Origin: Planctomycetota bacterium
Lineage (GTDB): Bacteria; Planctomycetota; Planctomycetia; JALXBF01
DNA length: 64,000 nucleotides
Direction of reading: 5' to 3'
NCBI GenBank assembly: GCA_026991575.1
Contig: JALXBF010000006.1
Location: forward strand, 6,402-70,401
Position numbers and translations under genes: made by a program. This document shows positions 20,703-42,092 of the stretch, in pieces; positions within the stretch are counted from its first letter, which is position 1; every line of letters begins with the position of its first letter. The notes under the pieces were generated by a model. That model was not told where the DNA came from. It made no database searches and worked only from the letters and a program-made list of their open reading frames with translations.

Positions 20703-21305
20703 CTAAGCAGACGCCTCTTCTGAGGCCGACACCCGATAGTCCTCCGGCTTAATGGGCAGCTCCGGGTAGCCGGTGTGGTGCGGGACGGGCAGCTCGTCGG
20801 TGGCATCCCGAGCGATCCGCTCAGCCCGTACCCGGTCCTGCACCCGCATCAGCCCCTCCAGCAGCGCCTCGGGCCGCGGCGGGCAACCCGGCACATACAC
20901 GTCCACCGGGACCACCAGGTCCACCCCTTTGACCACGTGGTAGCCGTACTTGAAATAAGGGCCACCACCGCAGACGCAAGCGCCCATGGCGATGACATAC
21001 TTCGGATCGGGCATCTGGTTGTACAGCCGCCGCACCCGGCTGGCCATCTTGTAGGTCACGGTCCCGGCGACGATCATCAGATCGGCCTGCCGGGGCGTGG
21101 CACGGAAGGCTCCGGCACCGAAGCGATCGATATCAAAGCGGCTGCAGCCAACGGCCATCATCTCGATCGCACAGCACGCGAGCCCGAAGGTCAACGGCCA
21201 CAGGCTCGACTGCCGTGCCCAGTTGATCGCCTGCTCCAGGCTGGTGATCACCACGCCCTCGGAGAACCGATCTTCGATCCAGGGAGTTCGTCCGTCGTGC
21301 GGCAT
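20703..21305 (-). CDS. nuoB: NADH-quinone oxidoreductase subunit B-like [4Fe-4S] protein (orphan; no other nuo genes in window)
   Basis: [65 protein letters not shown]; GGAGG RBS before ATG 21305. Confidence 0.93.
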
Positions 21306-24384: not shown

Positions 24385-27300
24385 GTGGTGCGTCAACGAT
24401 TCGCGAAACCCCTGTGGATTCTACTGGTTTGCGCGGCAGTATGCCCGTGGCCGGCGGTGCTGGAGCATGCGTCGGCTCAGCAAGCTCAGCCTCCGCTGCC
24501 GCCTGAGCTACTTTCCTATCGCAGGCTTTCGGTGTTCTATATCGCCAAGGACCTGGACAGTGCGCTTCAGCCGGTTGCGCGTGCGGATGCTGAGCCGCAG
24601 GCTGCCCTGCCCGGGCGGCCTCGTGTGCTGCCGGCAGAAGTGCACGCCACAGGCCGTGTTGATGGCGCCGTGGTCCGGCTGACGTTCACTGTCGACGTGG
24701 TCGCAGGTCCGGCTGGCGCCCTCTGCGTGCTCGGCCTCGGCAACGCGGTCCTGGAGGGAGCCCGCGCCGCCGTTGGCCAGGGGCTTGCTGTGCTGTGGCA
24801 CGAACAGCTCGGTTACCTGCTCGAACTGCCAGGTCCGGGCCGTTACCAGGTCCAGCTCCAAGCAGTCCTCCCGGCACTAAGGCTGAACCAGGGTGGTGCG
24901 TTGCGTCTGGCACTACCTGGTGCGCCCGTGACAGGGATCGCGCTTGACTTGCCAGCCGGGACCAGCTTCGTCCAGATCCTGCCGGACCGCCCGCATCGAC
25001 TGGAGCAGCGAGACGGCAGCGGTGCTCGTTTGACTGTCGCCGCCGGCAGCGTCCGGGAGCTGCTGGTCCGCTGGGCCGACAGCCCCCCTCAGTCCCCGCG
25101 CGTGGCCCGGTTCGTGGTCAGCCAGAGTCGCGTTTGGGCCAATGATCGGGCGGTCACGTTGCAGAGTGAGCTGAGGCTGACGGCAGCCGAACCGGTCGCT
25201 AGCTGGCAGATCGAGTTGCCGGCCGGGGCCCGGTTCATATCGGCCGAACCGGTGGGGGAGGCCCGTTTCGACCGGATTCTCAACACGGAAAAAGGGCGGA
25301 CGACGCTACGACTCGAAGCAATCGACTCGCGGTTCAGTCACGCGGAGCTCCGGCTTGAGCTTCAGTTCCCCTTCGACCGTGAGGGTCGTAGCCGCGTGGT
25401 GGGTGTTACCGTCGCCGACGCGGCCGAGCACACCGGGTGGGTCGTACTTCAACTTGATGTAGACAGCCAGCTTGGTGTCACGGCCACCGAGCATCTCGTG
25501 CCCCGCGACCCGGCCGACTATCCGGGAGAGCTGCCGCAGGACGGACCGCTGTATGTGTGGCGGGTTGGTGGGGCACCGTTTGCATTAGAGCTGCAGCGGT
25601 TCGCAGTGGCCGGGCCAGTACGGGCAACCGTAGACGTGGCTGCGCTGGCCGAGGAGGCGTCGACGGCCGTGGCCGCCCGTTTCACGCTGCGTGCCAACAA
25701 GCCACTGGAAGCTGTCGAAGTAGCTCTGCCCCGGGACGTCGCCGGGTTACAGCTGGCGACGCAAGAGATGGTTCATGCCGTGCCCCCGGTGGAACTGGAC
25801 ACAACGGGCCACTACCCGGAGCGGGTCACGATCCGCTCGCCGCGCCGCAGCAGCACCACGTTCTCGTTCACGCTGACGTATCGCGTACCGCACGTCACCG
25901 CTGGACCGTCAGCCCCCCGCACCGTCCCCCTGCCGGCGCTGCTTGGCGCCCAGCCGGAGCGAGTCCGCGTGCTGATCGCCGCAACGGATGCGCCAGCTTG
26001 GCTCGTCGCCCCCGAGGCCAGGGAGACGCACGCCGACTTTGACGGGGCAACTGCCCTGCTGGCTCTACTTCAGCAGCAAGCCCGGGTCATCGTCCGCGCT
26101 TACGAACTGGTCGCGCCCCGACTGCCCCAGCTCACGATCCAAAAGGGCTCGCCGGCCCTCAGCTACCATGGTGACGCTCAGGTGAATATCACGCTGGTCG
26201 ACGGCAGGCTGCGCGTTGAGCAAGCGCTCCGCTACACCCCGCCCGACGTGCTGCTCCGTGGCCTGGAACTGCTCGTGCCAGCCCCGCTGGAACATTCCAT
26301 CCGGTGGCCTGAACAGCTCCGTGTCCAGCCGCTCGGCAACGGCCGTTATCTGGTGCAACCAACGGTCGCATCCGACCAACCCGGAACCGGATCGGTCCGC
26401 TGGCAGTTTGATCTGGCAGTGCCTGAGGATGGCCCGCTGAGCTTGCCACTGGTCGTTCCCGACAACTTACCGGTCACGTGGACAGAGCTTCTTGCCGAGC
26501 TGCCGGCTTCTCTGCGACTCCGGGTGGCGGATGCCGGCTGGCACGAAGCGGGACTGGAAGCCCGTGACGACGCGGCCACGATCCGATGGCGGTGGTACCG
26601 GCCGGAGAACGTGCCGACACAGGCGAAGTTGACCATCGAACGCATCGGTGCTGCCCTCGGGTACGGTTGGTTTGCCGATCGTGTGCTGTATCGTGTGGCA
26701 TTTGAGCCACCTGACGGCCTCCGCTGGCGCTGCTCCTGGCGGTTCACGCGCCTCCGCACCTCCGAAGTAACACTCCGAGTGCCGTCCGGTGCCACGGTCG
26801 TTGAAGTGACCGTTGACGGTAAGCCGGCTGCCTGGGGAGCGGTGGCACAGAACCAGTATCGGGTACAAATCCCGCAAGCACGTGGCTCAGCCCGTCTGCT
26901 CAGCGTGGCCATGGTGCAGCGGTTGGACAGGCCGCTGGGACTGGTACGGAACCTGAGTCTCACCCCCCCGAACCTGTCGGGTTCTGGCATCTTGGGCGAG
27001 ACGCTCTGGGAGTTGCGGCTGCCTCCGCTTCTGCATCCGCTGCTAGGCGGGACCAACTATGTGCCGCTGGTAACGTTTCGCCTCAGCGCAGCCCCGGGCT
27101 GGTTTACTGCCGCACTGGGACCCGATGAGCTCGCAGCATGGATCGGCCAAGGCCACGACCAAGACGCTGCCAAGGCGCCAACTCCGGTTCCCAGGGCCGT
27201 GCTGTACGCTCCCGCCAACGGCGGCCCACTGCGGCTGGCGGTGGTCGCACTGGCGTTACTGGCACTGGTCGCCGCTCTAGCGGCGTTCCTGATCACCACC

Positions 27301-27576
27301 CTTATGTTCCTTCTGCCGAAACAACTCGCGCAAGCCACCGGTGCCCTTACGCTGGCGGGCCTTCTGCTGTTGGCCTGGTGGGATCTGCCCACGGCGGTGC
27401 TGGTCATCCAGTATGGCATCGTCGGCGGACTCATTGCCGTGGCAGCAGCCCTGGTGCGTCGCCGGCTAGAGCTTGAACGTGTCCGACGTGAGCTCTTCCG
27501 GCCGGCCGTGCCACCAAGCAGCTCCGTAGCACGCGACAGCCGCGCTGCGGCCGAAGTGGCCTCGGAGGTCCGCTGA
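24385..27576 (+). CDS. Large hypothetical membrane protein (1063 aa): signal peptide, about 5 beta-rich modules, 3 C-terminal TM helices
   Basis: Leader ending HASA|QQ; recurring xLPxG motif (LDLPAGTSF, IELPAGARF, LRVPSGATVVEVTVDG); hydrophobic C-terminus; no catalytic motif recognised. Confidence 0.85.
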   Translation: MVRQRFAKPLWILLVCAAVCPWPAVLEHASAQQAQPPLPPELLSYRRLSVFYIAKDLDSALQPVARADAEPQAALPGRPRVLPAEVHATGRVDGAVVRLTFTVDVVAGPAGALCVLGLGNAVLEGARAAVGQGLAVLWHEQLGYLLELPGPGRYQVQLQAVLPALRLNQGGALRLALPGAPVTGIALDLPAGTSFVQILPDRPHRLEQRDGSGARLTVAAGSVRELLVRWADSPPQSPRVARFVVSQSRVWANDRAVTLQSELRLTAAEPVASWQIELPAGARFISAEPVGEARFDRILNTEKGRTTLRLEAIDSRFSHAELRLELQFPFDREGRSRVVGVTVADAAEHTGWVVLQLDVDSQLGVTATEHLVPRDPADYPGELPQDGPLYVWRVGGAPFALELQRFAVAGPVRATVDVAALAEEASTAVAARFTLRANKPLEAVEVALPRDVAGLQLATQEMVHAVPPVELDTTGHYPERVTIRSPRRSSTTFSFTLTYRVPHVTAGPSAPRTVPLPALLGAQPERVRVLIAATDAPAWLVAPEARETHADFDGATALLALLQQQARVIVRAYELVAPRLPQLTIQKGSPALSYHGDAQVNITLVDGRLRVEQALRYTPPDVLLRGLELLVPAPLEHSIRWPEQLRVQPLGNGRYLVQPTVASDQPGTGSVRWQFDLAVPEDGPLSLPLVVPDNLPVTWTELLAELPASLRLRVADAGWHEAGLEARDDAATIRWRWYRPENVPTQAKLTIERIGAALGYGWFADRVLYRVAFEPPDGLRWRCSWRFTRLRTSEVTLRVPSGATVVEVTVDGKPAAWGAVAQNQYRVQIPQARGSARLLSVAMVQRLDRPLGLVRNLSLTPPNLSGSGILGETLWELRLPPLLHPLLGGTNYVPLVTFRLSAAPGWFTAALGPDELAAWIGQGHDQDAAKAPTPVPRAVLYAPANGGPLRLAVVALALLALVAALAAFLITTLMFLLPKQLAQATGALTLAGLLLLAWWDLPTAVLVIQYGIVGGLIAVAAALVRRRLELERVRRELFRPAVPPSSSVARDSRAAAEVASEVR

Positions 27577-30500
27577 TGCCAGGTTCGGGTCGAGCCAGAC
27601 GCCAGCTGTTGCACGTCTCGGTGCTGCTAGGCGTAACGACCGTGCTTTCTGCCTTGCCGCATCCGCACTGCGCTGCGCAGGATCTGGCGCCGGCAAGCAG
27701 GCCGAACGCAGCCGCGGCACCGGCCGCTGTGCCGGCCCGCGTGATCCTTGGCGAGCGTGGTTGGTTGCCGGAATTCATCCAACGCTTCGGCCCAGCGGTC
27801 CGCCTCGATCGGCGCTCCCTTGTGGAGCTGCTGGAGCAGGCTGCGGGTAGCCTGCCCGTGGCGAACGTGCACAGCGTGCACGTTCAGGTCGATCAGTTCG
27901 GCGAAACGGTCACCGGCTCGGCTCGGATCACGCTTCGCGCCAACCGCAGCCCGTGTTTGCTGGTCATTCCGCGACCGCTGGCGGGCTGTCTGCACCGAGT
28001 CGAGATGGATGATACCCCCCTTCGCCCGTTCGCCTCTCGGACCGACGCCGATTTGTTCCTAGTGCGTGCAACAGGACCGGCTACCGTGTCAGTCGCGTGG
28101 GATATGGCCCCCCCGAGAGCGGATGACTGGTCCTGGCTGCAGTGGCACTGGCCCGGCGTCTCGGTCCACTGGCAGCTGCCCGCCACCTTGACGAGCGTCA
28201 TCGCAGAGGACGGCTTGGTCAGCCGAGAGCGCGATGGATCCTGGCAGGCTTGGTTCGCGCCGGGTAAGGCCGCGTCGCTGCTCGTGCAGGACGGCGCGGC
28301 AGGACCGCCTTCTCAGCCAAGTAGCCCGCCGGTGTTTGCGAAACTGGTCGGCAAGCACACGGCCGTCGCGCCTGACCTGGTGCGCGTGCGTCTGAGCGTG
28401 GTGCTTTCCCGCCCGCCGGTCGGTAAGCGGAAGCGGCTGCGGCCCGTGCAGATCGCCTTGCCGCCAGCGTTCGTGGCACGCTCGATGGCTGCGGAGAGGC
28501 TGAAGGTAGCTGCGGCGGCCGACGGCGCCGGTATCGTGGCACTGCTGCCACAGGAGACGGACCAAGGCACGCTGGAACTGACCGGATCGCTACGCATCTC
28601 CAACAGTCGCCTGGCCCTGCCGCTGGCACGTCTGGACGGCGCGCTGGTCCTGGCACGAGAACATGCCTGTTACGGCCCGCCAGATGCAGTCTTTGCCCTG
28701 GAAGAGGCACGGGGTGTCCGGCCTGTAGCCTCGATCGCCCCCGCCGCTGACGAAGCACCGGAGCTTCGGCTCTCGTGGACCACGCCCGACGGTCGAGCGG
28801 TGCTGCGGCTGTACCGCACCGCTGCCCCGCTGCGCGCTAGTGCTACCGTCCGGCTGCATGCCGGCGAACAGACCCAAGCCCTCTGCGAACTCCGCTACCA
28901 GGCTGCCGACCGGGAGGTGCGACTGCTCCGGGCATGCCTGCCCGGCGGCTGGCGGGCCGTGTCCGTGACCCCCTGTGATGAGACCGTCGTGGAGGCGTGG
29001 CGTGTTAACGATCGAGAATGCGTCGGCAAGGCTGGGGGGACTGACGCGGCCCGGTCAGGCGGTCAGCTTGACGTTTGGCTTGCCCGGCCGCTGGGCCCTG
29101 GCGACCGTGCCTGCGTTCAGGTGGTGCTGGAGCCGATCGACATTGCGGGTGATCGGCCGCATCCGTTACCGCTGGTTCTGCCACTGGCACCGCTGCGCGA
29201 GCAGTGCAGCCTGGAGCTGGAATCGGACCCGGGCCACCGTGTCGAGCTGGTCACAGCGTTTGGCCTGGAGCCGGCCGCCACGTCGCAACAGACTGCTTTG
29301 CCGGGCATCACGCGGCTCGCATACGGCGAGCAGTCCCGCGGTACCTTCCGGACGGTGATCCGCACCCCCCGGCCGGACGTGACGCTTCGCACCGTCATTC
29401 GAGTCGACGCCGATGCGCTGAGGGCCACCTATGTCGTGGAGCGGCCAGAAGGTGCAGTCGCCAAGTGGGACAGGCCGTTGCGGCTGCGTTGGAGCGCTCC
29501 GGTACCAGGACTCGCGCTTACGCACGTTGCGACCGAGCTGGCTGCGGAGTTGCAAGAGGACCAGACCCTACTGGTGCGACAACGGCTGTCGGCAACCGCG
29601 GAGGCCAGGCCCGAAGCGAGCCATCCTGAACTGGTACGTCTCGCGGCCAGCTGGGCCGGCATCGACTCGGTCACCATCCCGCTTCCCACCCCGGTGGACG
29701 CGAACCTGGTCGAAGCTACGGTGACCGTTCAGCTGCTGAGCACCGATGTCGCCCTCGACGCCACAGGGCTGACGCCCGAGACAACGGCCCGCATGCCCAA
29801 CGGCGGCCGAACGCTCACGTACCGGTACGCCGCTGGGCAGCTGGCGTTGCGCGTGGTGCGCAAGCGGGGCGAAAGAAGTAGCGCCCGGCTAACGGCGTGC
29901 GGTGTTACGGTCACGATGCACGGTGACCAAGGCCGCGTGTGGTGGGATCTGGGCCTGAGCGTCGCCAGAGCCGCCAGGCTTACGGTGCGCCTGCCGGCGG
30001 GATTCCAGCCGCTGGCGGCTGAAGCCGGTGGACTACCGCTGGAACAAACCGGAACGCCATCGGTTCTGTCCGGCAGAATCCAAGGGGGCCTGCACCGCGT
30101 CCGCGTGATCGCGTCGATGCCCGCTGGTCCGTTTCGAACCGCCACCGTACGTCTGCCGGTGCTGTTAGTTGACGGAGAGCCCGTGCCCAGGCCGGAAGCG
30201 ATCATTGCCCGTGTGCTGACACCAGCACGCTGGCGTGCCGTGCTGCTAACCAGTAGCCGACGTACCGGTCCGCGGCTTCCCGGCTGGCAGTTTGTCGCCG
30301 TGCCCTATGTTTGGCTAGCGCATCGTCTCAACCGGCACCACCAACAGGAGCCGACGCTGCGCGTCGCGCCTGAGCAACTCAGGACCGTTGGCGATCTGCT
30401 TCGTCAGCTAACGCCGACTGTCGTTGTGGACCGCTTTGCACTGGCTGCAGCCGATCTGCAACCGGACCGCCCACTGATTGTGCCTCCCGGAAGCAAGCAG

Positions 30501-33500
30501 CCACCGACTGCCATCGACCTCGTTCGTGCGCTCGGACTGCATCTGGTGCAAGCTGACCGGTTCCAATTGGCCACCATTCGCCAGGAGCGGCTGAGCCCGT
30601 TTCTACCCGCCGACAACCGGACAGACATCGCCCCGCTGACAGATCCGGTCCTGCAACGTCAGTGTGAACAGGCGCTGCTATTCGGTACGGATGCCAGCGG
30701 CCGGTTCGCCCGCGCCGATCAATGGGTACCAATACCGTTACCGGGCGCGAAGCTCACGGTGTCGCCTTTGTGGCAGAGCCAGTTCTTCCTACTGGAGGAG
30801 CCAGCCGACAGTTTTACGCTGCTGTTCCTACCGTTCGAGCGGCTGGTTGGCGTGAGTCTACTCGGCGGGGTGCTGGCGCTAGTTGCAACGATCTTGCTGG
30901 CACGTCGCCTGACATCCCGCTGGCCGCTGGTGGTGGTTGGGGCAGTCCTCTTGCTGCTTGCAGGGCTTTGCAACACGCTCCCGTTACCGCTGGCGGCGCT
31001 GGCCGGTTGGCCCGTAGCGGCAGCCCTGATCGGTCTACTGATCGGCCGCCTGCGGGCCCCCCACCGGCAGGTGCAGCCGGCCACGTTGGAAACAGCAACC
31101 ACAGTACCGGCAGGTCCGACCGTCCAGGCAAGCATCACTGTTGCCCTGTTTTGCAGCAGCTTGCTAGCCGGCACCGCTCGCCTGGGCCACGCCCAGACCG
31201 AACCGGAACCGCGACCCGCGGCCGCGGAGCAACCGCTTGCCATCTTCGTCCCGCTCGACGAGCCGGGAGCGTTCTACGTGCCGGGTCGTTGGTTGCCCCG
31301 CATCGAACAGATTCGACAGGCCGATGTGGCCTATCTTCCGCGTGGCCGGCTGTCGATCGATATGAGCAGCGAGCAGGTCGCCGCGGAGGGGTGGATCGAT
31401 CTGGTCGTTTCCGGGCATTCGGCGGTGGAAGTGCCCGTGCCACTCGAGGGCTGGAGCTATCGACGACTGGCAGTGGATGGCCAGGCCCCCCTGGTCATGG
31501 AGCGCGACGGCAGAGCCGTGCTGCGCGTTACGCCGGGCAGTCACCGGCTGGAGTTTGCGGCTGTTGCGCCGTTGGAATCTGCCGCAGGCCGCAATCGGGG
31601 CGTTTGCCGGATCCGCTGGCTTCCTGTGGCCCACACCGTGGTAACGGTCGTTGGACCGGCTGCCGATGGCCTGTTGATGACTTCCCCGAGGCTGCGCAAT
31701 GCACGCCTCCGTTTCGTTCGCGTCTCAGAGCGTCGGGCCCGGCTGCAATTGACCGGACACCTGGGCCCCACCGAGCTGCTGGAGGTGCACTGGTTCAGCA
31801 ACCTGGATCCGCCGGACAGGCCGGCTCGGTACGAGTACGACCAGGTCATCGTGCTCCGGCCGGGCATTATCGAAAAGTATGTGGTCCTGACGGTGCCCCC
31901 CTCGAGCCAGCCTCTCGTGCGCGTCGTGCTCCACCTGCCTGACGGCTGGCGCGCGGTGAACGCCAACTGCACGCTTATCGATCGCGGCCAGCGTGCGGAA
32001 CTGCTTGTTCCCATCGACCGGCTGCGCAGGCGGAGAGCCATCCTCCACCTGGTTCGGGCCCGTCCGGAAACCGGCCCAGTCGAACTACTCGATGCGATCA
32101 ACTCCCCGAATGCCCGGCTCCGCGCGAACTATGTTCTCGTGCTGGCTGAGCCGAACGCGGCACCGCGGCTAGAGTCCGACAGGCTACGTAACGTGGCCGC
32201 AGACCAGCCGGCCGTCGAGCAACTACTTGCGTTGCTCAGCCCACTACAGGCCGAGCGTGTGATCGCGGCGTACGCGTTCGAGTCACAAACGGCGGCACTG
32301 CGTTTGTTGGCAAACGAACCGACGGCGCAGCGGAGTGGCGTGGAGCTTACCGCAGGCGTGACGCTGCACCATTGGGGGGTGAGGCTGATTGAGGTACTTC
32401 AGTTTGAGACCTTCCCGCCAACCGGGGTCAGGATTCGGATCCCAGCGGGGTGGCAGTTGCGATCCGTGCGCGCCAGCGGCGCCCGGTGGTCCCTGAGCGA
32501 GGATAACACCGCCCTACTGCTCCACGCGGAAGCAAGCGGTACAGAGGCGGCCACCGAAGGTGAACGGGTGCGCGTGGAACTGATGGCCGACCGGTTCGCT
32601 CCGCCGCAGATGGCAGCGTGGCGTATCGACCGGTTGCTTGCGCTTCCGGACACAGCAGTGCGTACGGTGCAGGTTGAACTGTACCGCACGGCAGACGTGG
32701 CCTTGGCCGAGGTCCATGCTCCGCAGTGGCGCCGACTCCGCGTCAATCAGCCGCCCACGGACCAGGCGAACCAGCGATTGCCAGAGGGCCGGTTTGTGGT
32801 ATCGGGGCCACCTCCGGAACTGAGGGTCAAAGCAACGGTCCAGGAGGCGATCACGGACTGGCGGGCCGAGACAACGATCGCACGGGAAGCAAACCGGATC
32901 CGGGCCAGAACGCGGGTCCAGCTGCGGGGCAACCTGCCTGCAGGTAGCCAGCTCCAGCTCTGGGTACCGCCAATGGCTCAGCTTGAGGAGCTTCGACCGC
33001 TTCGGCCCACGGCACAACTGGCGGTACGCCGGCTGGCTGCCGACCCAGCCCGCCAGGGCTCACGTTGGGCAGTGCGCTCCGCGCTGCCGGTCCGCGGTGG
33101 GCTGACGTTCGAGATCGGCTGGCGGCTCAGCGTGCCGGACCACCGGCAGTGGCGTTTCGAGCAACCACTCATTAACGGGATCCCTCCGGCCGAACATGTC
33201 GTGCGTGTGAGCCGCAATGCTCTTCCCCCCGGCACAACGCTCTCGGTACGCAGCGGCGACGTCGCTGTGCGTGAGGAACCGGACGCGGTCGTGCTGACGC
33301 TCAATCAAGAATCGCCTGCCGAGTTGGTCCTTGCGCTGGAGCGTGCCGCTTGGGCTCGGCCCACACTCGTGGTCGCCGAGCGGAAGACGCGAACGGACAG
33401 CCGGACGGTGCGCGATCACCTTAGCCTGTGGCTTTGGGCACCGTTCGGCGGCGACTGTCTGCTCCTCAGCCCCGTCCTGGAGCACGTCGATGCAGTGCTC

Positions 33501-34472
33501 ATCGACGGCCAGGCTGCCGGCTTCGAGGTGCAGAACGGTCAGCTTCGCTTCGCGCTTCTGCCCGACTGGTCGGTGCGGCGCGTGGAGATCCTGCAACAAG
33601 CCGCCTTGTCGCGAACGACCGATCTGCCCGTAAGCGTGCAACTGCGCGTCGGTCCGCATACGATCAAGGCCGGGTATGCGTGGCAGGTGCCGACGGCCCC
33701 AAAGCGGCTTCCGGGCAGCATTCGCATCGCATCCTGGCAACGGATCGAGCAATGGCAGGTGTCGCGGCTGTTGGCGTGGGCCAGTCGGTTTGCTGACGCA
33801 GCCCCGTCGCTGGAACAGCAAGTGCACCGCCAGCCACTGGCCCAGGTGCTCTTGACCGTGCATCTGCGCTGCCTGGCCGCCCTACCACGGCTCCGCTGGC
33901 TCCGCGAGGAAGGCTTCTGGTCACTGGCCCCGGTGGGCGACGTGGACGCGATTCGAGCAAGCGTCTCTGCGTTGCAGGATCGCCGTGTCGCAGCCGAGCG
34001 GCTTGCACGACAGCTCGGCCTGGACCTCGGCGCCCTCGCCGCCGGCAGAGGCACCGCCCAGACCATAGAGCCGCTCACGCTAAGCGACCCGTTTGCCGCC
34101 TCCGAGAACAACCGACAGTGGCTGCTGGTCGGACCGGCAGGGCCGGAGTCCAACCGGCTTCCATCAAGCTGGCTCGCAGCGTCCGAACACCCGCAAACGC
34201 CCTGGCTGACGCAACCGGTGCGTTGGCTGCTCGTCGGCGTGCCAGTCCTGCTATGGCTGCTGGCCATCCGACCGCTGTTCTACATGCGTGTTGCGGCACT
34301 GTTGGGGGCCATTGCGCTGTACATGACCGTGGAAGGCTACGGGCGTAGCGAAGTATTGCTGATGACGGCACTCACCGCGGTTGCTGTGCTACTGGGACTG
34401 GTCGAGGCGTTCGCCTGGTGGCGAGCGGTCCGCCGGAGCACCGGGGGCCCCGAACCGATCGTGCTCGAATGA
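27576..34472 (+). CDS. Giant hypothetical membrane protein (2298 aa): two tandem ectodomain + TM units
   Basis: TGATG overlap with the previous gene plus GGAGG RBS; leader ending HCAA|QD; TM cluster near aa 1090-1206; second ectodomain; C-terminal TM cluster; repeated LPxGW motifs. Confidence 0.85.
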   Translation: MPGSGRARRQLLHVSVLLGVTTVLSALPHPHCAAQDLAPASRPNAAAAPAAVPARVILGERGWLPEFIQRFGPAVRLDRRSLVELLEQAAGSLPVANVHSVHVQVDQFGETVTGSARITLRANRSPCLLVIPRPLAGCLHRVEMDDTPLRPFASRTDADLFLVRATGPATVSVAWDMAPPRADDWSWLQWHWPGVSVHWQLPATLTSVIAEDGLVSRERDGSWQAWFAPGKAASLLVQDGAAGPPSQPSSPPVFAKLVGKHTAVAPDLVRVRLSVVLSRPPVGKRKRLRPVQIALPPAFVARSMAAERLKVAAAADGAGIVALLPQETDQGTLELTGSLRISNSRLALPLARLDGALVLAREHACYGPPDAVFALEEARGVRPVASIAPAADEAPELRLSWTTPDGRAVLRLYRTAAPLRASATVRLHAGEQTQALCELRYQAADREVRLLRACLPGGWRAVSVTPCDETVVEAWRVNDRECVGKAGGTDAARSGGQLDVWLARPLGPGDRACVQVVLEPIDIAGDRPHPLPLVLPLAPLREQCSLELESDPGHRVELVTAFGLEPAATSQQTALPGITRLAYGEQSRGTFRTVIRTPRPDVTLRTVIRVDADALRATYVVERPEGAVAKWDRPLRLRWSAPVPGLALTHVATELAAELQEDQTLLVRQRLSATAEARPEASHPELVRLAASWAGIDSVTIPLPTPVDANLVEATVTVQLLSTDVALDATGLTPETTARMPNGGRTLTYRYAAGQLALRVVRKRGERSSARLTACGVTVTMHGDQGRVWWDLGLSVARAARLTVRLPAGFQPLAAEAGGLPLEQTGTPSVLSGRIQGGLHRVRVIASMPAGPFRTATVRLPVLLVDGEPVPRPEAIIARVLTPARWRAVLLTSSRRTGPRLPGWQFVAVPYVWLAHRLNRHHQQEPTLRVAPEQLRTVGDLLRQLTPTVVVDRFALAAADLQPDRPLIVPPGSKQPPTAIDLVRALGLHLVQADRFQLATIRQERLSPFLPADNRTDIAPLTDPVLQRQCEQALLFGTDASGRFARADQWVPIPLPGAKLTVSPLWQSQFFLLEEPADSFTLLFLPFERLVGVSLLGGVLALVATILLARRLTSRWPLVVVGAVLLLLAGLCNTLPLPLAALAGWPVAAALIGLLIGRLRAPHRQVQPATLETATTVPAGPTVQASITVALFCSSLLAGTARLGHAQTEPEPRPAAAEQPLAIFVPLDEPGAFYVPGRWLPRIEQIRQADVAYLPRGRLSIDMSSEQVAAEGWIDLVVSGHSAVEVPVPLEGWSYRRLAVDGQAPLVMERDGRAVLRVTPGSHRLEFAAVAPLESAAGRNRGVCRIRWLPVAHTVVTVVGPAADGLLMTSPRLRNARLRFVRVSERRARLQLTGHLGPTELLEVHWFSNLDPPDRPARYEYDQVIVLRPGIIEKYVVLTVPPSSQPLVRVVLHLPDGWRAVNANCTLIDRGQRAELLVPIDRLRRRRAILHLVRARPETGPVELLDAINSPNARLRANYVLVLAEPNAAPRLESDRLRNVAADQPAVEQLLALLSPLQAERVIAAYAFESQTAALRLLANEPTAQRSGVELTAGVTLHHWGVRLIEVLQFETFPPTGVRIRIPAGWQLRSVRASGARWSLSEDNTALLLHAEASGTEAATEGERVRVELMADRFAPPQMAAWRIDRLLALPDTAVRTVQVELYRTADVALAEVHAPQWRRLRVNQPPTDQANQRLPEGRFVVSGPPPELRVKATVQEAITDWRAETTIAREANRIRARTRVQLRGNLPAGSQLQLWVPPMAQLEELRPLRPTAQLAVRRLAADPARQGSRWAVRSALPVRGGLTFEIGWRLSVPDHRQWRFEQPLINGIPPAEHVVRVSRNALPPGTTLSVRSGDVAVREEPDAVVLTLNQESPAELVLALERAAWARPTLVVAERKTRTDSRTVRDHLSLWLWAPFGGDCLLLSPVLEHVDAVLIDGQAAGFEVQNGQLRFALLPDWSVRRVEILQQAALSRTTDLPVSVQLRVGPHTIKAGYAWQVPTAPKRLPGSIRIASWQRIEQWQVSRLLAWASRFADAAPSLEQQVHRQPLAQVLLTVHLRCLAALPRLRWLREEGFWSLAPVGDVDAIRASVSALQDRRVAAERLARQLGLDLGALAAGRGTAQTIEPLTLSDPFAASENNRQWLLVGPAGPESNRLPSSWLAASEHPQTPWLTQPVRWLLVGVPVLLWLLAIRPLFYMRVAALLGAIALYMTVEGYGRSEVLLMTALTAVAVLLGLVEAFAWWRAVRRSTGGPEPIVLE

Positions 34473-35120
34473 AAGGTGCGCGGGCCGCCGAAGTGCCGCA
34501 GGAACCTCCGTAGCGACCGTTTCGCTCGTCGGACCGGTCTGCCGCGCCCCCCCGCCAGCCTGCTTCAGTCGTTCAAGGGTTCGGTACTCGGACAGGCGTT
34601 TGGCAGGGCCCGGCAACAGGACCGTGGCTGCGTCGCTAAGCAAGGCCGGGCGGCCGGCCGCCTGGAAACTCGCCCGCAGGTCGCAGCGCAGCTCAGGCTG
34701 GTCGGCCGGTCCCCAGGGCAGCCAGAAGCTGTAGCCCCACCCAAAAGCGTCCTTCCTCAATCGGTGGCGCGCCTCCTCCGGTGAGAACACCCAGATGCGG
34801 TCCGGCTTGACCTTAGCTTTCGTCACATCCTCCGGTGCCACCCACGCAAAGAACGTAAACGTTCCGTCCGCGACCACAGGCTCCTCGTTGGCCGGGCCGA
34901 ACAAATACACGCGTGCCGCAAACCCACGCAGGTGCGGCTTGCCGTTCAACTCCAGAAGCGCGTCATTCCAGATGACGTGAACTTCCGTAACCTCCTCGGA
35001 CTGAGCCGCCTGCAGTGAGCCGCTGATCAGGCGACGACCAGGCTCGGTCGCGCTGCCAGCGCATCCGCTCAGCACCAGCAACGCGACCGCGGTCGCGACC
35101 AGGCACCAGTTTCTGGGCAC
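34389..35120 (-). CDS. Putative lipoprotein, planctomycete-type conserved hypothetical
   Basis: Lipobox LLVLSG|C after a GTG start near 35120-35129; core VIWNDALL...LRGFAARVYLFG...WVFSPEE...GWGYSFWLPWG; tail overlaps the convergent giant gene by 84 nt. Confidence 0.65.
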   Translation of the reverse strand: MPRNWCLVATAVALLVLSGCAGSATEPGRRLISGSLQAAQSEEVTEVHVIWNDALLELNGKPHLRGFAARVYLFGPANEEPVVADGTFTFFAWVAPEDVTKAKVKPDRIWVFSPEEARHRLRKDAFGWGYSFWLPWGPADQPELRCDLRASFQAAGRPALLSDAATVLLPGPAKRLSEYRTLERLKQAGGGARQTGPTSETVATEVPAALRRPAHLSFEHDRFGAPGAPADRSPPGERLDQSQ

Positions 35121-36203
35121 GTGCACAACCACGACCAATCTCCGTAACACCGTTGACCGGTGGCATTCCCAGTTTCCGCGGTCACCGCCCGCTGTCAACG
35201 CCGACTTGGATGCAATCCAGCCCTTGCGGACGCGACCCAGCAACGCGGCACGGCGAGGCCGAACGGGAAGCCGCCGGATGGATGACTTCCGCTCGGACCA
35301 GGCCGATGCAGGCTCTCCCTCCGCGGCCTTGGCAGACACTGTGGCCGCGGGCGCGCTCTTCCTGTCGAACAAACACATGGTTCAATGGCGCCCGCCCAAC
35401 TTTAGCGCTCCCTCTTCTCCCCCTCCTCCCGACTCGATGCCGTGGCCGCAGCGGTGGCATCGGCCGGCGCGATCAGGCTCACGCCACGAGCCACCAGTTT
35501 TCGCCCACGGCGCACAGACGACTGGGCCCGGCAGCGGCCATGATGAGCGTACGGCTCGGCTAGGGATGAGATCGGCGTCTTCGGTGGAACCAGGCATCGC
35601 TTGCTACGTTCAATCAGGGGGTCCGCAATGCCAGCCCCGGACGTTCGCCGAGGAGCACACTTCCCTGCGCGACAACCACTCTCGCCGCACGCGCCCGGTG
35701 TCGTCGACCGATGAACGCCCCCCCCAGCCTTGCAGGCGTTCGTGATCCGGGCGAAGAACTCTTTCCGGAAGACCTGCAAGATGCCGCGCTGGGTGACCGA
35801 CGGTGCGCTGAGGCCGGACGAGATTTCGGCGCGCGGCGTTCGACGGGCACTGCTTTCCTTGTCCGCTCTGCGCGGAAGCGGTGCCTTGGGCAGTCGTCTG
35901 GTGGACTGCTATGCCCTCTCTCCCGGGATGGGTCGTGACAGCACTGGGCCCACGTCGCATCGTGGCCATCGGGCCATGTTCGAGGCGGGACTGTGACGCA
36001 GTCGTGGTAGCTCATCGCGCGTAGTCCGTCGCCCCGCATGCACCCGGCGAGCTTCCTTCCGGCCCCTCCGTCCGGACCACCGCCGCGGCGGAACCGACAG
36101 TCTCGGAGTCCCCGGGGCCAGACGGCTCAGGTGGTCCGCGTCGGGCAGGCAGCCGCAGCGCGAGGCAGAGCGTGGAAACGGCGGGACGTGACCTTGTGCC
36201 TGC

Positions 36204-36894: not shown

Positions 36895-37563
36895 TCATGC
36901 TCTCAGTTTTTCGACCAGCGACCGGACCGCGTCGCCGACGGGCGCATCGGTAGAGAAGATCGCGCTGGCGGCGACGAAGATGTCGGCCCCGGCCGCACGC
37001 GCCGCCGTGATTGTCTTGGCGTTGATGCCACCGTCCACTTCGATTGCGTAGCCAAGCTGGCGCTGCTCACGCCAGCGGCACAGCTGTTCGACCTTGCGCA
37101 ACGGCCCGCGCAGGAACGGCTGGCCGGCGAAGCCTGGATTGACCGTCATGACGAGCACCAGATCGATCAGCTCCAGGACCTCGCTCAGCGTACCGGCCGG
37201 AGTAGCTGGGTTGATGGCAACACCGGGATGGGCACCGAGCTCGCGGATCCGCCGCAACGTCCGATCCAGGTGCCGGCAGACTTCCTGGTGCACGATGATG
37301 CGTGTGGCTCCGGCACGGGCGAATGCTTCCAGGTGATCGTCCGGTTCGGTGACCATGAGATGGGCTTCGATTGGCACCTGCGTGTGAGCACGTACGGATG
37401 CGACGATTGGTACGCCGATAGTGAGGTTGGGCACAAAGTGGCCGTCCATGACATCGACGTGGATCGCCCCCACGCCCGCAGCAAGCGCCTCGTCGATCTG
37501 TTGGCCGAGTTGCCAAAAGTCGGCCGCCAGGATCGAGGCGGCCAGTTCCGCGCGCGGTCGCAT
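36895..37563 (-). CDS. rpe: Ribulose-phosphate 3-epimerase
   Basis: ASILAADF, HVDVMDGHFVPNLT, EAHLMV, VMTVNPGFAGQ, IEVDGGI. Start at ATG 37563. Confidence 0.97.
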   Translation of the reverse strand: MRPRAELAASILAADFWQLGQQIDEALAAGVGAIHVDVMDGHFVPNLTIGVPIVASVRAHTQVPIEAHLMVTEPDDHLEAFARAGATRIIVHQEVCRHLDRTLRRIRELGAHPGVAINPATPAGTLSEVLELIDLVLVMTVNPGFAGQPFLRGPLRKVEQLCRWREQRQLGYAIEVDGGINAKTITAARAAGADIFVAASAIFSTDAPVGDAVRSLVEKLRA

Positions 37564-37565
37564 CG

Positions 37566-39305
37566 TCAGTCCCCCTGCGTTCCGGCAGCCTCCTCCAGGG
37601 CAATCCGCAGCCGTACTAGCCCGGCCTGCACGTCGGGACCGAGGTTCAGCCACAGGACCGGCCGTCCGACATCGGCCAGCGCGAGCACATCGCCGTAGGC
37701 CTGCGCCTCTTTGAGCACCCCGAACGAATAGTTCGTACCCGGCACCGGGATGTCCTCGCGGTCCTCTGCCGAAATAAACAGGAACACCCCTTCGGGCGGC
37801 CCCCCTTTGTGAAGCTGCCCGGTCGAGTGCAGGTACCGGGGGCCGTAGCCCAAGGGCACGGCACACCGAGCGGCAGATCGGATGATGCGGCGGATCCAGC
37901 GGAGTTCGGCGGCCGTTTCGCCGTTTTCAGGGATGAACGCATTCACCGCCACGAAGCCCTTCAGCGTGCGGGCCGTGTGCATGAGCGTCTGAAGGGCGGC
38001 CGTCAGGCCGGCGTCACGCAGGGCGCGCCCTACAGCAGAGTCGGCGTCGGGCACAAAGCAGCGCAAGTCCTCACCCTGGCGAAGCCATTGCGGTCGCGGG
38101 AGTACACCGCGATCTGCATACTCGCTCAGCAGGGCACGCGTCTTCTGCTTCGTCGCCTCAACGTTCGGTTGGTCGAACGGGTGCACGCCAAGCAGGACAC
38201 TCGCGATCGCCGTTGCAACCTCCCAGTGGTACATCCAGCCAGCCAGTGCCGCCGGACCACGTAGCTCAATGGTGACCGCCGGCGCACCGGCGGCACGCAG
38301 CGCCGCAACCGCGTCGTCCTGTTCCGGATCCGGGCGCGCCTGGTCGCGGATATACACAAACAGCCGGTCGTCGCCATAATCGTCGGGCGGTCCCAGTGGC
38401 TCGCCCGCCACGGGCACGATCCCGCGACCGTCTTTGCCGGTCGATTCGGCGACGAGCTGTTCGATCCACAGTTCGATCGCCGCCACGCTCGGGGATGCTA
38501 CGAGCGTCAGTTTGTCGGCGCCCTCCAGGGTCGCACGGCCCAAGATAGCACCAAGGACCAGCCCCATGTTTGTCTCGGGCGAATCGGACTGGTCCGCCTG
38601 CTCAGCAGCCACCGCGCCTGCCAGCAGTTCAGACATCGGTGCGCCGTGGAGGGCACCGGGGACGAGGCCGAACGGACTGAATGCCGAGAACCGTCCGCCC
38701 ACGGCTGGGTCGCCCAACAGCACCGCTCGGAATCGCTCCGTCTCCGCTTGGCGGGCCAGAACGGTGTCCGGGTCTGTGATGGCGATCATGCGCCGGTAGA
38801 CGGCGTTGCCTTCGCCCAATGCGTCGCGCAGCCTGGCTTCAAACAGCGACGCCAACGCCGTGGTCTCGGCCGTCGTGCCCGACTTAGACGAGATGATCAC
38901 CCACGTCCTGGACCAGTCCACGTCGCGCGTTAGCCGCCGAATTTGGCCGGGCACGGTCGAATCGACCACCCGCAGTCGCGGCTCGTCGCCTTCGCAGAAG
39001 GTGCGTTGCCATAGCAACGGGCATAGGCTCGAGCCCCCCATGCCCGCCAGCAACACCGTCTGGATCTGCTCTTGCCGTGCCTCGTCACGGAGCCGAAGCC
39101 AGGCGGGCAGGTCCGTCCGGTAGCGTGACGGCGCATCGAGCCAACCGAGCCAGCGGTGCTCGTCGCGACCGGTCCACAGCGTTGCATCCCGCTGCCAGAG
39201 CCGTTTGATCCACCGTTCCGTGGCCGCGCGGGCTAAGTCCGCCTCGATCTGTCGGCTCCAGGGGAGTTGCCCGATCTGATCCAACAAATGCTTTGTTGCC
39301 GTCAT
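37566..39305 (-). CDS. pgi: Glucose-6-phosphate isomerase (type resembling the Pgi half of Tal-Pgi fusions)
   Basis: WLGWL, GMGGSSL, SSKSGTTAET, VGGRFSA, EQLVAESTGK, PFDQPNVEATK, PRYLHSTGQLHKGGP. Start at ATG 39305. Confidence 0.88.
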   Translation of the reverse strand: MTATKHLLDQIGQLPWSRQIEADLARAATERWIKRLWQRDATLWTGRDEHRWLGWLDAPSRYRTDLPAWLRLRDEARQEQIQTVLLAGMGGSSLCPLLWQRTFCEGDEPRLRVVDSTVPGQIRRLTRDVDWSRTWVIISSKSGTTAETTALASLFEARLRDALGEGNAVYRRMIAITDPDTVLARQAETERFRAVLLGDPAVGGRFSAFSPFGLVPGALHGAPMSELLAGAVAAEQADQSDSPETNMGLVLGAILGRATLEGADKLTLVASPSVAAIELWIEQLVAESTGKDGRGIVPVAGEPLGPPDDYGDDRLFVYIRDQARPDPEQDDAVAALRAAGAPAVTIELRGPAALAGWMYHWEVATAIASVLLGVHPFDQPNVEATKQKTRALLSEYADRGVLPRPQWLRQGEDLRCFVPDADSAVGRALRDAGLTAALQTLMHTARTLKGFVAVNAFIPENGETAAELRWIRRIIRSAARCAVPLGYGPRYLHSTGQLHKGGPPEGVFLFISAEDREDIPVPGTNYSFGVLKEAQAYGDVLALADVGRPVLWLNLGPDVQAGLVRLRIALEEAAGTQGD

Positions 39306-39795
39306 ACCAGTCTCGCGGACGAACCGGACACGATTGTGACGCTGGCGCAACGGTACCAGGGTCAGGTGTGTGAAGTTTGACGCGGCGAGGTAGTGCTCGT
39401 CAAGGCCATGCGTCGCTTTCGGGTTCGATGGAACTCCTGAACGTAGCGTGTGCTGCTGCCAGGTGGGTTCGGATCGCTGCCCCGGGGGTTCGCTTCCCGC
39501 CGATATGCCAGGCGCACCGATGATCCCACCGAGCGGACCCTTCTCTTCCCTGAGTTCGCTTCCCAGCGATAAGCCAGGCGCACGCAGCGCTGTTGCGCGG
39601 GCTCGTCCCCCATTCACGCGGAGATCAAGCATGGGAGCCTTCGATCGCGCAATGAGTCGCTACGCGTGTTCGTCGCCCACTGGGGCGTGTTCGCCGCGGG
39701 AAGCGATCGGCGCTCCTGACAAACGATGGGCGGCGGTCGTGGCCGAGCGGCGGCTCGACCCCCACGCGCGCCGCGAACACCGAAAGCCCCTCTGC

Positions 39796-39863: not shown

Positions 39864-42092
39864 ATGCAACGACATGCGGACACGGATTTGGTTGTCGTTT
39901 CCAATCGACTGCCAATCACCTTAACGGAAACGCCAAGCGGTTACACGTACAAGCCGAGTGCAGGGGGACTGGCAACAGCGCTTTCCGGGCTGAAGGAAGC
40001 GAATTTTCTCTGGATCGGCTGGCCGGGAGCGGTTGTCGAGGAAGGGGTTCAGAAGCACATTGAGGAAGACCTGCTCCGCGAGCACCGCTGCATGCCGGTG
40101 TTTCTGAGCAACGAGCAGGTCGAGCAGTTCTACAACCGCTTCTGCAACGGGGTCATCTGGCCGCTGTTCCATTACCTGCCTGAGTACACCGACTTCGAGC
40201 TCGTCGGATGGAACTACTACCAGGAGGTAAACGAGCTGTTTGCCAATGCTGTGGCAGAGGTTGCGCCGCCGGATGCGACAATCTGGATCCACGACTACCA
40301 CCTAATGCTGCTGCCACAACTGCTCCGGGAACGGTTGCCCGATGCTCGAATCGGCTTCTTTTTGCACATTCCGTTCCCGTCATCGGAGGTTTACCGGCTG
40401 CTGCCGGTGCGGCGTCAGATTCTGACCGGCCTGCTCGGAGCCGACGTCGTCGGCTTCCACACGTACGACTACGCGCGGCACTTCCGCAGTGCGTGCATGC
40501 GGGTGCTAGGCTACGACGCCAAGCCGGACATGGTCGATGCCGATGGTCGGCCAGTGCAGCTGGTGGTGGCCCCCATTGGGATCGATCCGGATCGGTTTGT
40601 TGAGTTGGCCCGGAGCACGCGCACCCAGATGCGGCTCGAACGGCTGCGCAGCCAGTTTCGCTCGCGTCGCGTGATCCTGGGCGTGGACCGGCTGGACTAC
40701 AGCAAGGGGCTAACGCACAAGCTGCGCGCGTTCGCCCGCTTCCTGCAGCGACATCCTGAATGGCGTAACCGCTGTGTGTTCCTGCAAGTGGCAGTGCCAT
40801 CCAGAACGGGCGTGCAGCGTTACAAGCAGTTGCGGCGCGAAGTGGAAGAGCTCGTCGGGCACGTCAACGGGCTGTACAGCAGCGTGGAGCACACCCCGGT
40901 GCACTTCCTCTTCCAGAACGTCTCCCCCACCACGCTCAGCGCGCTGTATCAGCTCGGCGACGTCTGCTGGGTCAGTTCCATCCGGGACGGCATGAACCTG
41001 GTCTCGCAGGAGTATGTCGTGAGCCAGCTTGAAGGGGACGGGGTGCTCGTTCTCAGCGAGTTTGCCGGCGCCGCCCAGATCCTTGACGGCGCGATCCTCG
41101 TCAACCCATGGAACGTCGACCAGATGGCCGACGCGCTGCGGGAAGCACTGGAGATGCCCATCGAGGAGCGGGAGGCCCGCCTGGCCAGGATGCGCGAGAA
41201 GATCTACAGCAACAGCTCCAAGGCCTGGGCAGAGAAATTCCTCGGCATCATCCGCAAGCATACCGAGGAGGTTCGGGCGGTGCCCGACCGGATCAACTTG
41301 CTCCGCGTGCTGGAAGACCTAACACAGGCATGCGTTCAGGCCGAGAAGCGGTACTTCCTGCTGGACTACGACGGCACCCTGCGTCCGTTTGCCCCGACTC
41401 CCCAAGAGGCCGTGCCCACCCCTCAGGTGCGTGAGCTGCTGAACGCCCTAGCCTCCCTGCCAAACACGTATGTGTATGTCGTCAGTGGTCGGGACCAGGA
41501 GACGCTGGAAAGCTGGCTGGGCGATCTACCCATTGGCCTTTGCGCCGAGCATGGTGTGCTGTTCCGCGACGTCGGCAGTCGTGAGTGGCAACGCCTGGTT
41601 CACGTGTCCACTGACTGGTTCGAGACCGTGCGGCCGATCATGGAAAGTTACGCCCAGATGACTCCAGGGGCGTTGGTCGAGAAGAAGTCCGCGGCGCTGG
41701 CATGGCATTTTCGCCGCTGCGACCCGGACTTTGGTCAGTGGCAAGCCAACGAACTGGCGTTCCATCTGGCCAGTGTCGTCAGTAACCTGCCAGTCGAGGT
41801 GATTCACGGTCACAAGGTCATTGAGGTCCGCGCTCAGGGTGCCAACAAAGGGGCACTGGTACGCCACCTGGAGAAGCGCTGGGAGCGGGACGACTTCATC
41901 TTCGCCATCGGTGACGACGCCACCGACGAGGACATGTTCCAGGCTCTGCAGGGACGTGGCTGGTGCTGTCGGCTCGGCCGAGGACCGTCGGCCGCGGCCT
42001 ACTACTTGGAGCGACAGGCCGACGTGATGCGCGTGCTGAACCACCTGGTGCGCGCCGTGCAGGGCAGTCCGGCCGAGCAAGTTCAGGGCTAA
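39864..42092 (+). CDS. otsAB: Bifunctional trehalose-6-phosphate synthase/phosphatase (GT20 + HAD fusion)
   Basis: SNRLP, WIHDYHL, FLHIPFP, GVDRLDYSKG, RDGMNLV, LSEFAGA; TPP half LDYDGTL and GDDATDEDMF. Confidence 0.95.
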   Translation: MQRHADTDLVVVSNRLPITLTETPSGYTYKPSAGGLATALSGLKEANFLWIGWPGAVVEEGVQKHIEEDLLREHRCMPVFLSNEQVEQFYNRFCNGVIWPLFHYLPEYTDFELVGWNYYQEVNELFANAVAEVAPPDATIWIHDYHLMLLPQLLRERLPDARIGFFLHIPFPSSEVYRLLPVRRQILTGLLGADVVGFHTYDYARHFRSACMRVLGYDAKPDMVDADGRPVQLVVAPIGIDPDRFVELARSTRTQMRLERLRSQFRSRRVILGVDRLDYSKGLTHKLRAFARFLQRHPEWRNRCVFLQVAVPSRTGVQRYKQLRREVEELVGHVNGLYSSVEHTPVHFLFQNVSPTTLSALYQLGDVCWVSSIRDGMNLVSQEYVVSQLEGDGVLVLSEFAGAAQILDGAILVNPWNVDQMADALREALEMPIEEREARLARMREKIYSNSSKAWAEKFLGIIRKHTEEVRAVPDRINLLRVLEDLTQACVQAEKRYFLLDYDGTLRPFAPTPQEAVPTPQVRELLNALASLPNTYVYVVSGRDQETLESWLGDLPIGLCAEHGVLFRDVGSREWQRLVHVSTDWFETVRPIMESYAQMTPGALVEKKSAALAWHFRRCDPDFGQWQANELAFHLASVVSNLPVEVIHGHKVIEVRAQGANKGALVRHLEKRWERDDFIFAIGDDATDEDMFQALQGRGWCCRLGRGPSAAAYYLERQADVMRVLNHLVRAVQGSPAEQVQG

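Follow-up and report, generated by a model that had tools for sequence, protein, structure and literature searches.

Two adjacent genes, here termed A and B, fill the forward strand from position 24385 to position 34472 of a 64,000-nucleotide stretch of contig JALXBF010000006.1 (assembly GCA_026991575.1, a Planctomycetota bacterium), and together they encode ~3,360 residues. The whole 64,000-nucleotide stretch is referred to below as the window. An earlier reading of the letters alone (the original prediction) had described three tandem units sharing one membrane-anchored architecture. The locus is read here as a non-enzymatic, equimolar, inner-membrane-anchored periplasmic scaffold that is conserved in Planctomycetota. 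The description of the proteins is far more certain than their function, and the reading as a whole is held at roughly even confidence.

Three units in two coupled genes

The two open reading frames (ORFs) were established from the ORF list and its translations. Gene A (24385-27576, + strand) begins with GTG and encodes 1063 aa, which constitute unit 1; a recorded protein identical to A (P0003) starts one codon later and has 1062 aa. Gene B (27576-34472, + strand) begins with ATG and encodes 2298 aa, comprising units 2 and 3 in a single chain. The coupling of the two genes by TGATG, as originally claimed, was read directly in the sequence: the TGA stop of A and the ATG start of B share one base (TGATG; CGCTGATGCC), and a Shine-Dalgarno-like GGAGG is found 8 nt upstream, the two elements together spanning 27564-27578 (+ strand).

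The likeness of the three units was below the reach of simple comparisons. BLASTP of A against B and of B against itself returned nothing below E 0.6 (best E 0.66), and hhalign with two-sequence profiles, made of the window protein and its ortholog from a syntenic metagenome contig (L001, 60% identical), gave no match above 1.4% probability. Homology between units was first detected when a 33-sequence profile of the A family was used (96-97.5%), and it became decisive after B homologs from related loci were added. The A family then aligned to B1 (B residues 1-1175) with 99.9% probability and E 6.9e-34 (residues 47-847 / 54-848) and to B2 (B residues 1176-2298) with 99.9% probability and E 1.4e-33 (residues 80-888 / 76-879), and B1 aligned to B2 with 98.8% probability and E 1.4e-16. 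By these profile alignments A, B1 and B2 are true paralogs, collinear and of one architecture, and B is two such units joined in one chain, so the central claim of three tandem units stands, resting on profiles deeper than those in which it is invisible.

Each unit had further been said to contain a series of ~160-170-aa beta-rich modules. Self-alignment of the A-family profile with hhalign produced off-diagonals at shifts of ~160, 330 and 510 residues (99.6, 98.3 and 92.8%), which indicate five tandem modules of ~165 aa between A residues 78 and 900, and the structural model of A presented below is all-beta over this region. The same shifts were recovered, more weakly, in the self-alignment of B1 (~163 and 346 residues), and that of B2 showed no repeat shifts. 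The order of leader, five modules, juxtamembrane region and three transmembrane helices is therefore direct for A, for which both the full-length model and the self-alignment are at hand. For B1 and B2 the same layout would follow from collinear profile homology together with hydropathy, the repeat signal being weak in the former and absent in the latter.

A short motif that had been noticed to recur among the modules was also recovered. Expressed as [LIVC]x[LIV]P[ASDGP]G, a pattern picked post hoc, it occurs 7 times against 0.5 expected, and none of 2000 shuffles reached 7. The copy ACLPGGWRAV (B residues 454-463) is genuine and is not matched by the regular expression used for the count. Few columns of the A family are nearly invariant, and two motif prolines, P632 and P800, belong to them.

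A maximum-likelihood tree was built from the beta arrays of 11 loci. An A clade (support 100/100) and a B1 clade (99/98) were separate in 10 of the 11 loci, and the B2 clade was weakly supported (68/66). The three clades share one internal branching order, which indicates that the three units had already diverged when the lineages separated and that their later evolution ran in parallel, as is expected of obligate partners. On the evidence of this tree, the branching implies that the triplication is old.

Fold, membrane anchors and the junction within B

Full-length unit A was modelled with AlphaFold2 using the 33-sequence alignment, giving a mean predicted local distance difference test (pLDDT) score of 78.8. 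The model is all-beta over residues 85-955 and is followed by helices at 956-976, 979-999 and 1001-1037. In a Foldseek search of the PDB with the full unit, ranks 1-8 were all Ost1/ribophorin I, from the yeast and human oligosaccharyltransferase (OST), with E-values of 2.4e-8 to 3.4e-6 and probability 1.0; the next matches were integrin alpha, complement C5 and mu-homology domains, followed by aminopeptidase N and LTA4H. Because domain orientation lowers the template-modelling (TM) scores of multi-domain models, module 1 was also modelled alone (A residues 76-246, AlphaFold2, 16-sequence alignment). This model has 14 strands, a pLDDT of 92.5 and a predicted TM score (pTM) of 0.85. All 50 of its top Foldseek matches in the PDB were Ost1/RPN1 chains or aminopeptidase N-domains, the latter from M1 enzymes (ERAP1, ERAP2, IRAP, APN, factor F3, LTA4H) and two chains of one M61 enzyme. 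TMq values were 0.46-0.59 for Ost1/RPN1 and the M1 enzymes and 0.38-0.41 for the M61 chains, at probability 1.0; ranks 1-2 were 6s7t_E and 8b6l_O (TMq 0.52-0.59), and the M1 N-domains scored 0.46-0.55, likewise at probability 1.0. As modelled, module 1 of A has the fold of ribophorin I/Ost1 and of the M1-aminopeptidase N-domain. The aminopeptidase N N-terminal domain, which the original prediction had named for comparison, thus proved to be the right fold in the searches with both the full unit and module 1. The resemblance of the Ost1 lumenal domains to the M1-peptidase N-domain has already been noted in OST structure papers.

Hydropathy marks an N-terminal leader on both ORFs. The features of A are all on the + strand. 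A predicted signal peptide occupies residues 1-31 (24385-24477), with a basic N-terminus, a hydrophobic core and an A-x-A/Q ending (...EHASA/QQ); the A/Q ending is also seen in A homologs. The ribophorin I / M1-peptidase-N-like beta sandwich of module 1, as predicted by AlphaFold2 and Foldseek, covers residues 78-239 (24616-25101), and modules 2-5, placed by self-hhalign and the all-beta model with approximate boundaries, cover residues ~240-409, 410-588, 589-759 and 760-900 (25102-27084). In the AlphaFold2 model the juxtamembrane region (residues 901-955; 27085-27249) combines short helices with strands. The three transmembrane helices (27250-27495) are modelled with pLDDT ~90 and agree with conservation and with hydropathy, which places the cluster at residues 946-1026; G1014 within them is nearly invariant, and a conserved WWD-type loop was noted in this region. 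The remaining residues (27496-27573) form a tail that the positive-inside rule suggests is cytoplasmic. A basic cluster, RRRLELERVRRELFRP, begins at the end of the third helix (residues 1025-1040) and extends into this tail, and a similar RR..(V/F)(F/H)P tail is present in family members.

B, also on the + strand, opens with a putative signal peptide at residues 1-33 (27576-27674) with a predicted cleavage site at ...HCAA/QD. The module array of unit 2, collinear with unit 1 by hhalign, spans residues 54-848 (27735-30119). It is followed by a unit 2-specific juxtamembrane region (residues 849-1087; 30120-30836) that does not align to unit 1 and in which D952, T1000, G1037, D1039 and W1050 are conserved among 17 B homologs, and by a cluster of three helices predicted from hydropathy (residues 1088-1158; 30837-31049). 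The array of unit 3, again collinear with unit 1 by hhalign, spans B residues 1251-2054 (31326-33737). The juxtamembrane region of unit 3 (residues 2055-2212; 33738-34211) has no alignment to unit 1, and its composition suggests helices; the C-terminal transmembrane cluster, predicted from hydropathy, lies at residues 2213-2282 (34212-34421). Both the middle and the C-terminal clusters were present in all B homologs checked by hydropathy.

Between units 2 and 3 lies a fourth helix resembling a signal peptide (residues 1183-1206, ...ARLGHA/QTEP; 31122-31193), identified in the alignment of the 17 B homologs. The count of about three transmembrane helices per unit given in the original prediction thus holds for A, in which three are modelled, and falls short at this junction, which holds four hydrophobic helices. 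In all 17 homologs the junction consists of three hydrophobic helices, a short basic linker and the fourth hydrophobic segment, and the end of that segment has Ala at -1 (16 of 17), Gln at +1 (12 of 17) and Pro at +3 (11 of 17). The N-terminal leaders of A proteins end in the same A/Q pattern. A return of the chain to the periplasmic side at this point is required by the homology of unit 3 to the exported units 1 and 2, and the fourth helix would provide it. We infer that it serves as an internal signal sequence, restarting the export of unit 3; signal peptidase I probably cuts after A1206, in which case B would be a polyprotein yielding two products.

Family membership, distribution and gene context

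No characterised family claims the locus by sequence, as had been anticipated. Pfam searches found no family for A or B at E<=1 and none for 33 relatives at E<=0.01; NCBIfam gave no credible match to A, B or the 33 relatives, and PADLOC gave no match. Sequence searches of the PDB with the single proteins and with the family profile found nothing, and the profile found no OST chain at E<=1. Literature searches found no described bacterial ribophorin-like family. The family of A with its fused B partner is undescribed in Pfam, NCBIfam, PADLOC, the PDB or the searched literature: its fold is known, its architecture is new and the family is widespread.

An enzymatic signature was likewise missing. 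HEXXH, CxEQ and GxSxG are absent from A and B, and neither N-terminus has a lipobox. The A-family positions conserved at >=75% are Pro, Gly, Trp and Leu, together with the start Met and two Ala. The alignment of B homologs adds a few acidic and hydroxylated residues (D952, T1000, D1039 and D1977), which are conserved in regions peculiar to B and without an alignment to unit A; no acidic residues are conserved elsewhere. The earlier statement that no catalytic motifs are visible is therefore upheld, with these residues to be noted beside it.

Relatives of A were collected in several ways. A HMMER search with A against 1.84 billion representative proteins returned 41 relatives at E<=1e-3, 32 of them 1059-1210 aa long and the rest shorter. 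Where relatives bear a name on record, it is 'hypothetical protein', one exception being a 949-aa match named 'PAS domain-containing protein'. The syntenic metagenome contig L001 carries the same pair, in which B only looks split, owing to a run of N. At L003, L004, L005, L006 and L009, more distant A-type proteins (14-27% identity) each have an ORF of 2231-2395 aa directly behind them. A scan of genome contigs with a single sequence (P0001) gave no match; a scan of species-representative genomes with a five-sequence Gemmataceae-type alignment returned 17 loci, every one of which carries a Planctomycetota label (Gemmataceae, Planctomycetaceae, Planctomycetia and two Ca. Kuenenia). Twelve of these loci have an A-type ORF of 1113-1169 aa with an ORF of 2323-2503 aa after it; of the other five, three are fragmented (two of these from MFD-series metagenome-assembled genomes, MAGs) and two do not extend far enough to include all of B. 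The arrangement that defines the family, an A of ~1060-1210 aa followed by a two-unit B of ~2230-2500 aa, was thus found in the window, in L003-L006 and L009 and in 12 genome loci. The suggestion that similar proteins occur in other planctomycetes was correct, and the pair is not peculiar to the genome of the window. The Ca. Kuenenia labels (L014 and L018) are doubtful, since their A and B are near-identical in length to, and close in sequence to, those of freshwater Gemmataceae-type MAGs. L014 adjoins a freshwater MAG locus (L020) in the tree.

Two outlying loci contain the same modules by profile, likewise in fused or coupled paralogs. In a Pontiellaceae (Kiritimatiellota) MAG (L008, 26-9021) a 2101-aa protein is a fusion of two units (hhalign 100% and 99.9%); it differs from the A/B family in having two units, a larger middle transmembrane cluster and a vWA neighbour. 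The preceding gene encodes a zf-HC2/vWA/YfbK_C membrane protein, and no separate A-type gene is visible on this contig, which begins 25 bases before the vWA gene. At L007 (8001-12232) a coupled pair of 669 and 741 aa with a 4-nt overlap matched at 99.1% and 99.4%; it differs in that each protein has a leader and three modules with no transmembrane anchor, and a CarboxypepD_reg domain is present in one of them. Profile search found many such anchorless three-module relatives of 600-740 aa in metagenomes.

The flanking genes vary by lineage: downstream lies a FadB-like gene in one subgroup, an S9 peptidase gene in another and, in the window, a gene on the opposite strand. Because the neighbours differ between lineages, the pair is regarded as a self-contained unit. 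A conserved third gene was considered and rejected, the downstream gene differing between subgroups and strands. A linkage to Bat/MoxR genes was also rejected, MoxR-DUF58 having been seen once, with an opposite-strand gene between it and the pair.

In the window the G+C content is even (62-69%), and the pair is surrounded by housekeeping genes: the suf operon; a gene for a LysM protein; DUF72, which is upstream on the opposite strand; and rpe, pgi and an otsA-otsB fusion downstream. A 329-aa ORF (34389-35378, - strand) with no Pfam or PADLOC match lies directly downstream of B and convergent with it, and L005 has a 289-aa gene without a Pfam match in the equivalent place, beside rpe. The longest ORFs for rpe (36895-37866, - strand, 323 aa) and pgi (37566-39632, - strand, 688 aa) overlap by ~300 nt; the Pfam match begins at residue 108 in the former and spans residues 188-400 in the latter, and the true starts are probably further in. 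A single fused protein of 742 aa (39864-42092, + strand; Glyco_transf_20 + Trehalose_PPase) combines the trehalose-6-phosphate synthase with the phosphatase. Within the suf operon, a NuoB-type gene (Oxidored_q6; 20703-21305, - strand) stands between a TrmB/MarR-type regulator and sufC, and this insertion is kept in the syntenic L001 (6254-6850, - strand, 198 aa).

A putative periplasmic scaffold and its alternatives

In the scaffold reading the beta arrays would lie in the periplasm and the tails in the cytoplasm, as the leaders and the positive-inside rule suggest. B would thread outward, pass through three transmembrane helices to the inside, and return outward through the fourth helix. Translational coupling, the gene fusion and the parallel evolution of the clades suggest a heterotrimer-like, equimolar A:B1:B2 assembly, in which coupling and fusion would enforce synthesis of the units at 1:1:1. 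The transmembrane helices of the units would pack together as a core of ~10, which would carry 15 beta-sandwich modules on top. The fold suggests a passive scaffold or a platform that holds ligands, as does the fact that no residues of a catalytic type are conserved in the beta arrays; in the enlarged periplasm of planctomycetes the array might hold extended polypeptide or glycan ligands, or space the layers of the envelope. The original prediction had also offered a channel or a coat, and neither is supported by any evidence obtained.

Several observations weigh against this reading. The pTM of the full unit A model is 0.40, so the overall shape is not fixed by the model. The likeness of fold to Ost1 is moderate (TM 0.5-0.6) and comes with no sequence signal, which makes the ligand-binding analogy weak. 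The conserved Asp and Thr residues of the B juxtamembrane regions could be catalytic or ion-binding. At the most divergent locus (L003, 9798-20017) the three units group together on long branches (97/97), perhaps through long-branch attraction, gene conversion or an independent triplication, and this grouping may count against a single old triplication. Finally, no RNA runs containing the window sequence were found, the only runs being of hydrothermal-vent metagenome DNA.

One alternative is that the proteins are ribophorin-like accessories: with no catalysis of their own, they would assist a translocon (Sec/YidC) or a polyprenol-dependent glycosyl- or oligosaccharyl-transferase by capturing emerging polypeptides and presenting them, a task that Ost1/ribophorin I has been proposed to carry out in the eukaryotic OST. 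Structurally, Ost1/RPN1 chains of OST and of Sec61-TRAP-OST complexes are indeed the closest matches, both for the full unit and for module 1 (6s7t_E, 8b6l_O, 6s7o_E, 6ezn_A, 6c26_1, 7oci_A). The gross layout is also the same: an exported, type-I-like protein with a leader, tandem beta sandwiches on the outer side, a C-terminal transmembrane anchor, a cytoplasmic tail and no catalytic residues. However, there is no sequence signal, with no match to Ribophorin_I (PF04597) at E<=1; each A/B unit has five modules and three transmembrane helices, as against two modules and one helix in Ost1; and the family consists of three paralogous units in two coupled genes and is bacterial (Planctomycetota and one Kiritimatiellota relative). 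No STT3-like gene was linked in any locus seen, and no transferase or Sec gene is a conserved neighbour in the loci examined. The M1 N-domains match as well as Ost1 does, so the similarity may be one of fold only. The A/B pair is accordingly not a member of ribophorin I/Ost1, given the failed profile test, the differing domain and helix counts, the lack of a linked OST partner and the equal match to the M1 N-domain, and an accessory role of this kind is considered unlikely. The comparison with the M1 aminopeptidases is similarly confined to the fold. Their N-domain (Peptidase_M1_N) is of similar size (~170-200 aa) and is, like the modules, a many-stranded sandwich, but those enzymes carry it once, as an appendage, whereas the A/B units repeat it five times in tandem and have no thermolysin-like catalytic domain, no HEXXH and no Peptidase_M1 Pfam match.

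A second alternative, judged improbable, is that the units are independent paralogous receptors or adhesin-like proteins that share an operon without forming an obligate complex. In its favour, the two-gene L007, which lacks transmembrane helices, shows that the modules can work outside a membrane-anchored trimer. Independent proteins should differ in copy number and order from locus to locus; instead, A followed by the fused B1-B2 is kept in every intact locus across deep divergence, in the same order and with the same coupling, and the three clades have the same branching order, as is the case for co-evolving subunits.

It is also conceivable, though very unlikely, that the ~10 transmembrane helices are the core of a transporter or channel for which the beta arrays serve as a periplasmic gate or receptor. 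The helices are among the best-predicted parts of the model, they contain the near-invariant glycine and the WWD-type loop, and B has conserved Asp residues near the membrane. On the other side, no transporter family was matched, each unit contributes three helices in which few polar residues are conserved, which is little for a pore, and ~80% of the mass is periplasmic beta structure. The remaining candidates, an alpha-2-macroglobulin (A2M)/complement-type protein that traps proteases or serves in defence, or a BatD-like aerotolerance component, are suggested by weak alignments of the full model to complement C5, A2M and integrin alpha and by the vWA/YfbK gene adjoining the Kiritimatiellota relative, and are extremely improbable, since those structural matches have TM scores of 0.07-0.11 (C5 and A2M, 0.07-0.09) at low probability, there is no CxEQ thioester and no A2M, BatD (PF13584) or PADLOC match, and neither in the window nor in most loci does a MoxR/DUF58/vWA gene lie beside the pair.

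Planctomycetes divide without FtsZ and have an atypical envelope, in which the periplasm is enlarged and membranes invaginate; to our knowledge the protein components of this envelope are largely unknown. The A/B pair is a concrete candidate for such a component: it has a fixed three-paralog design, is conserved across the sampled Planctomycetota loci, and is built on a fold otherwise known from ribophorin I and M1 peptidases. B in addition makes it possible to test whether a bacterium processes an internal signal peptide. TraDIS (the sequencing of transposon insertion sites) of Planctopirus limnophila has identified 108 essential phylum-specific proteins of unknown function (PMC10632474). If the assembly is structural or essential, it would offer a direct route into planctomycete envelope biology. 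A bolder version, which we regard as rather unlikely, is that the pair forms a phylum-defining, possibly essential, pseudo-threefold machine of the inner membrane, whose 15 modules organise or span the periplasm and whose larger component is a polyprotein with a cleaved internal signal peptide. Such a machine might, for example, hold membrane invaginations or contact sites, or handle exported proteins. Ribophorin I is a eukaryotic signature protein that has been reported from Asgard archaea too (PMC11417166), and a bacterial array of the Ost1 fold would, if the bolder version is true, bear on the origin of the non-catalytic subunits of the eukaryotic OST.

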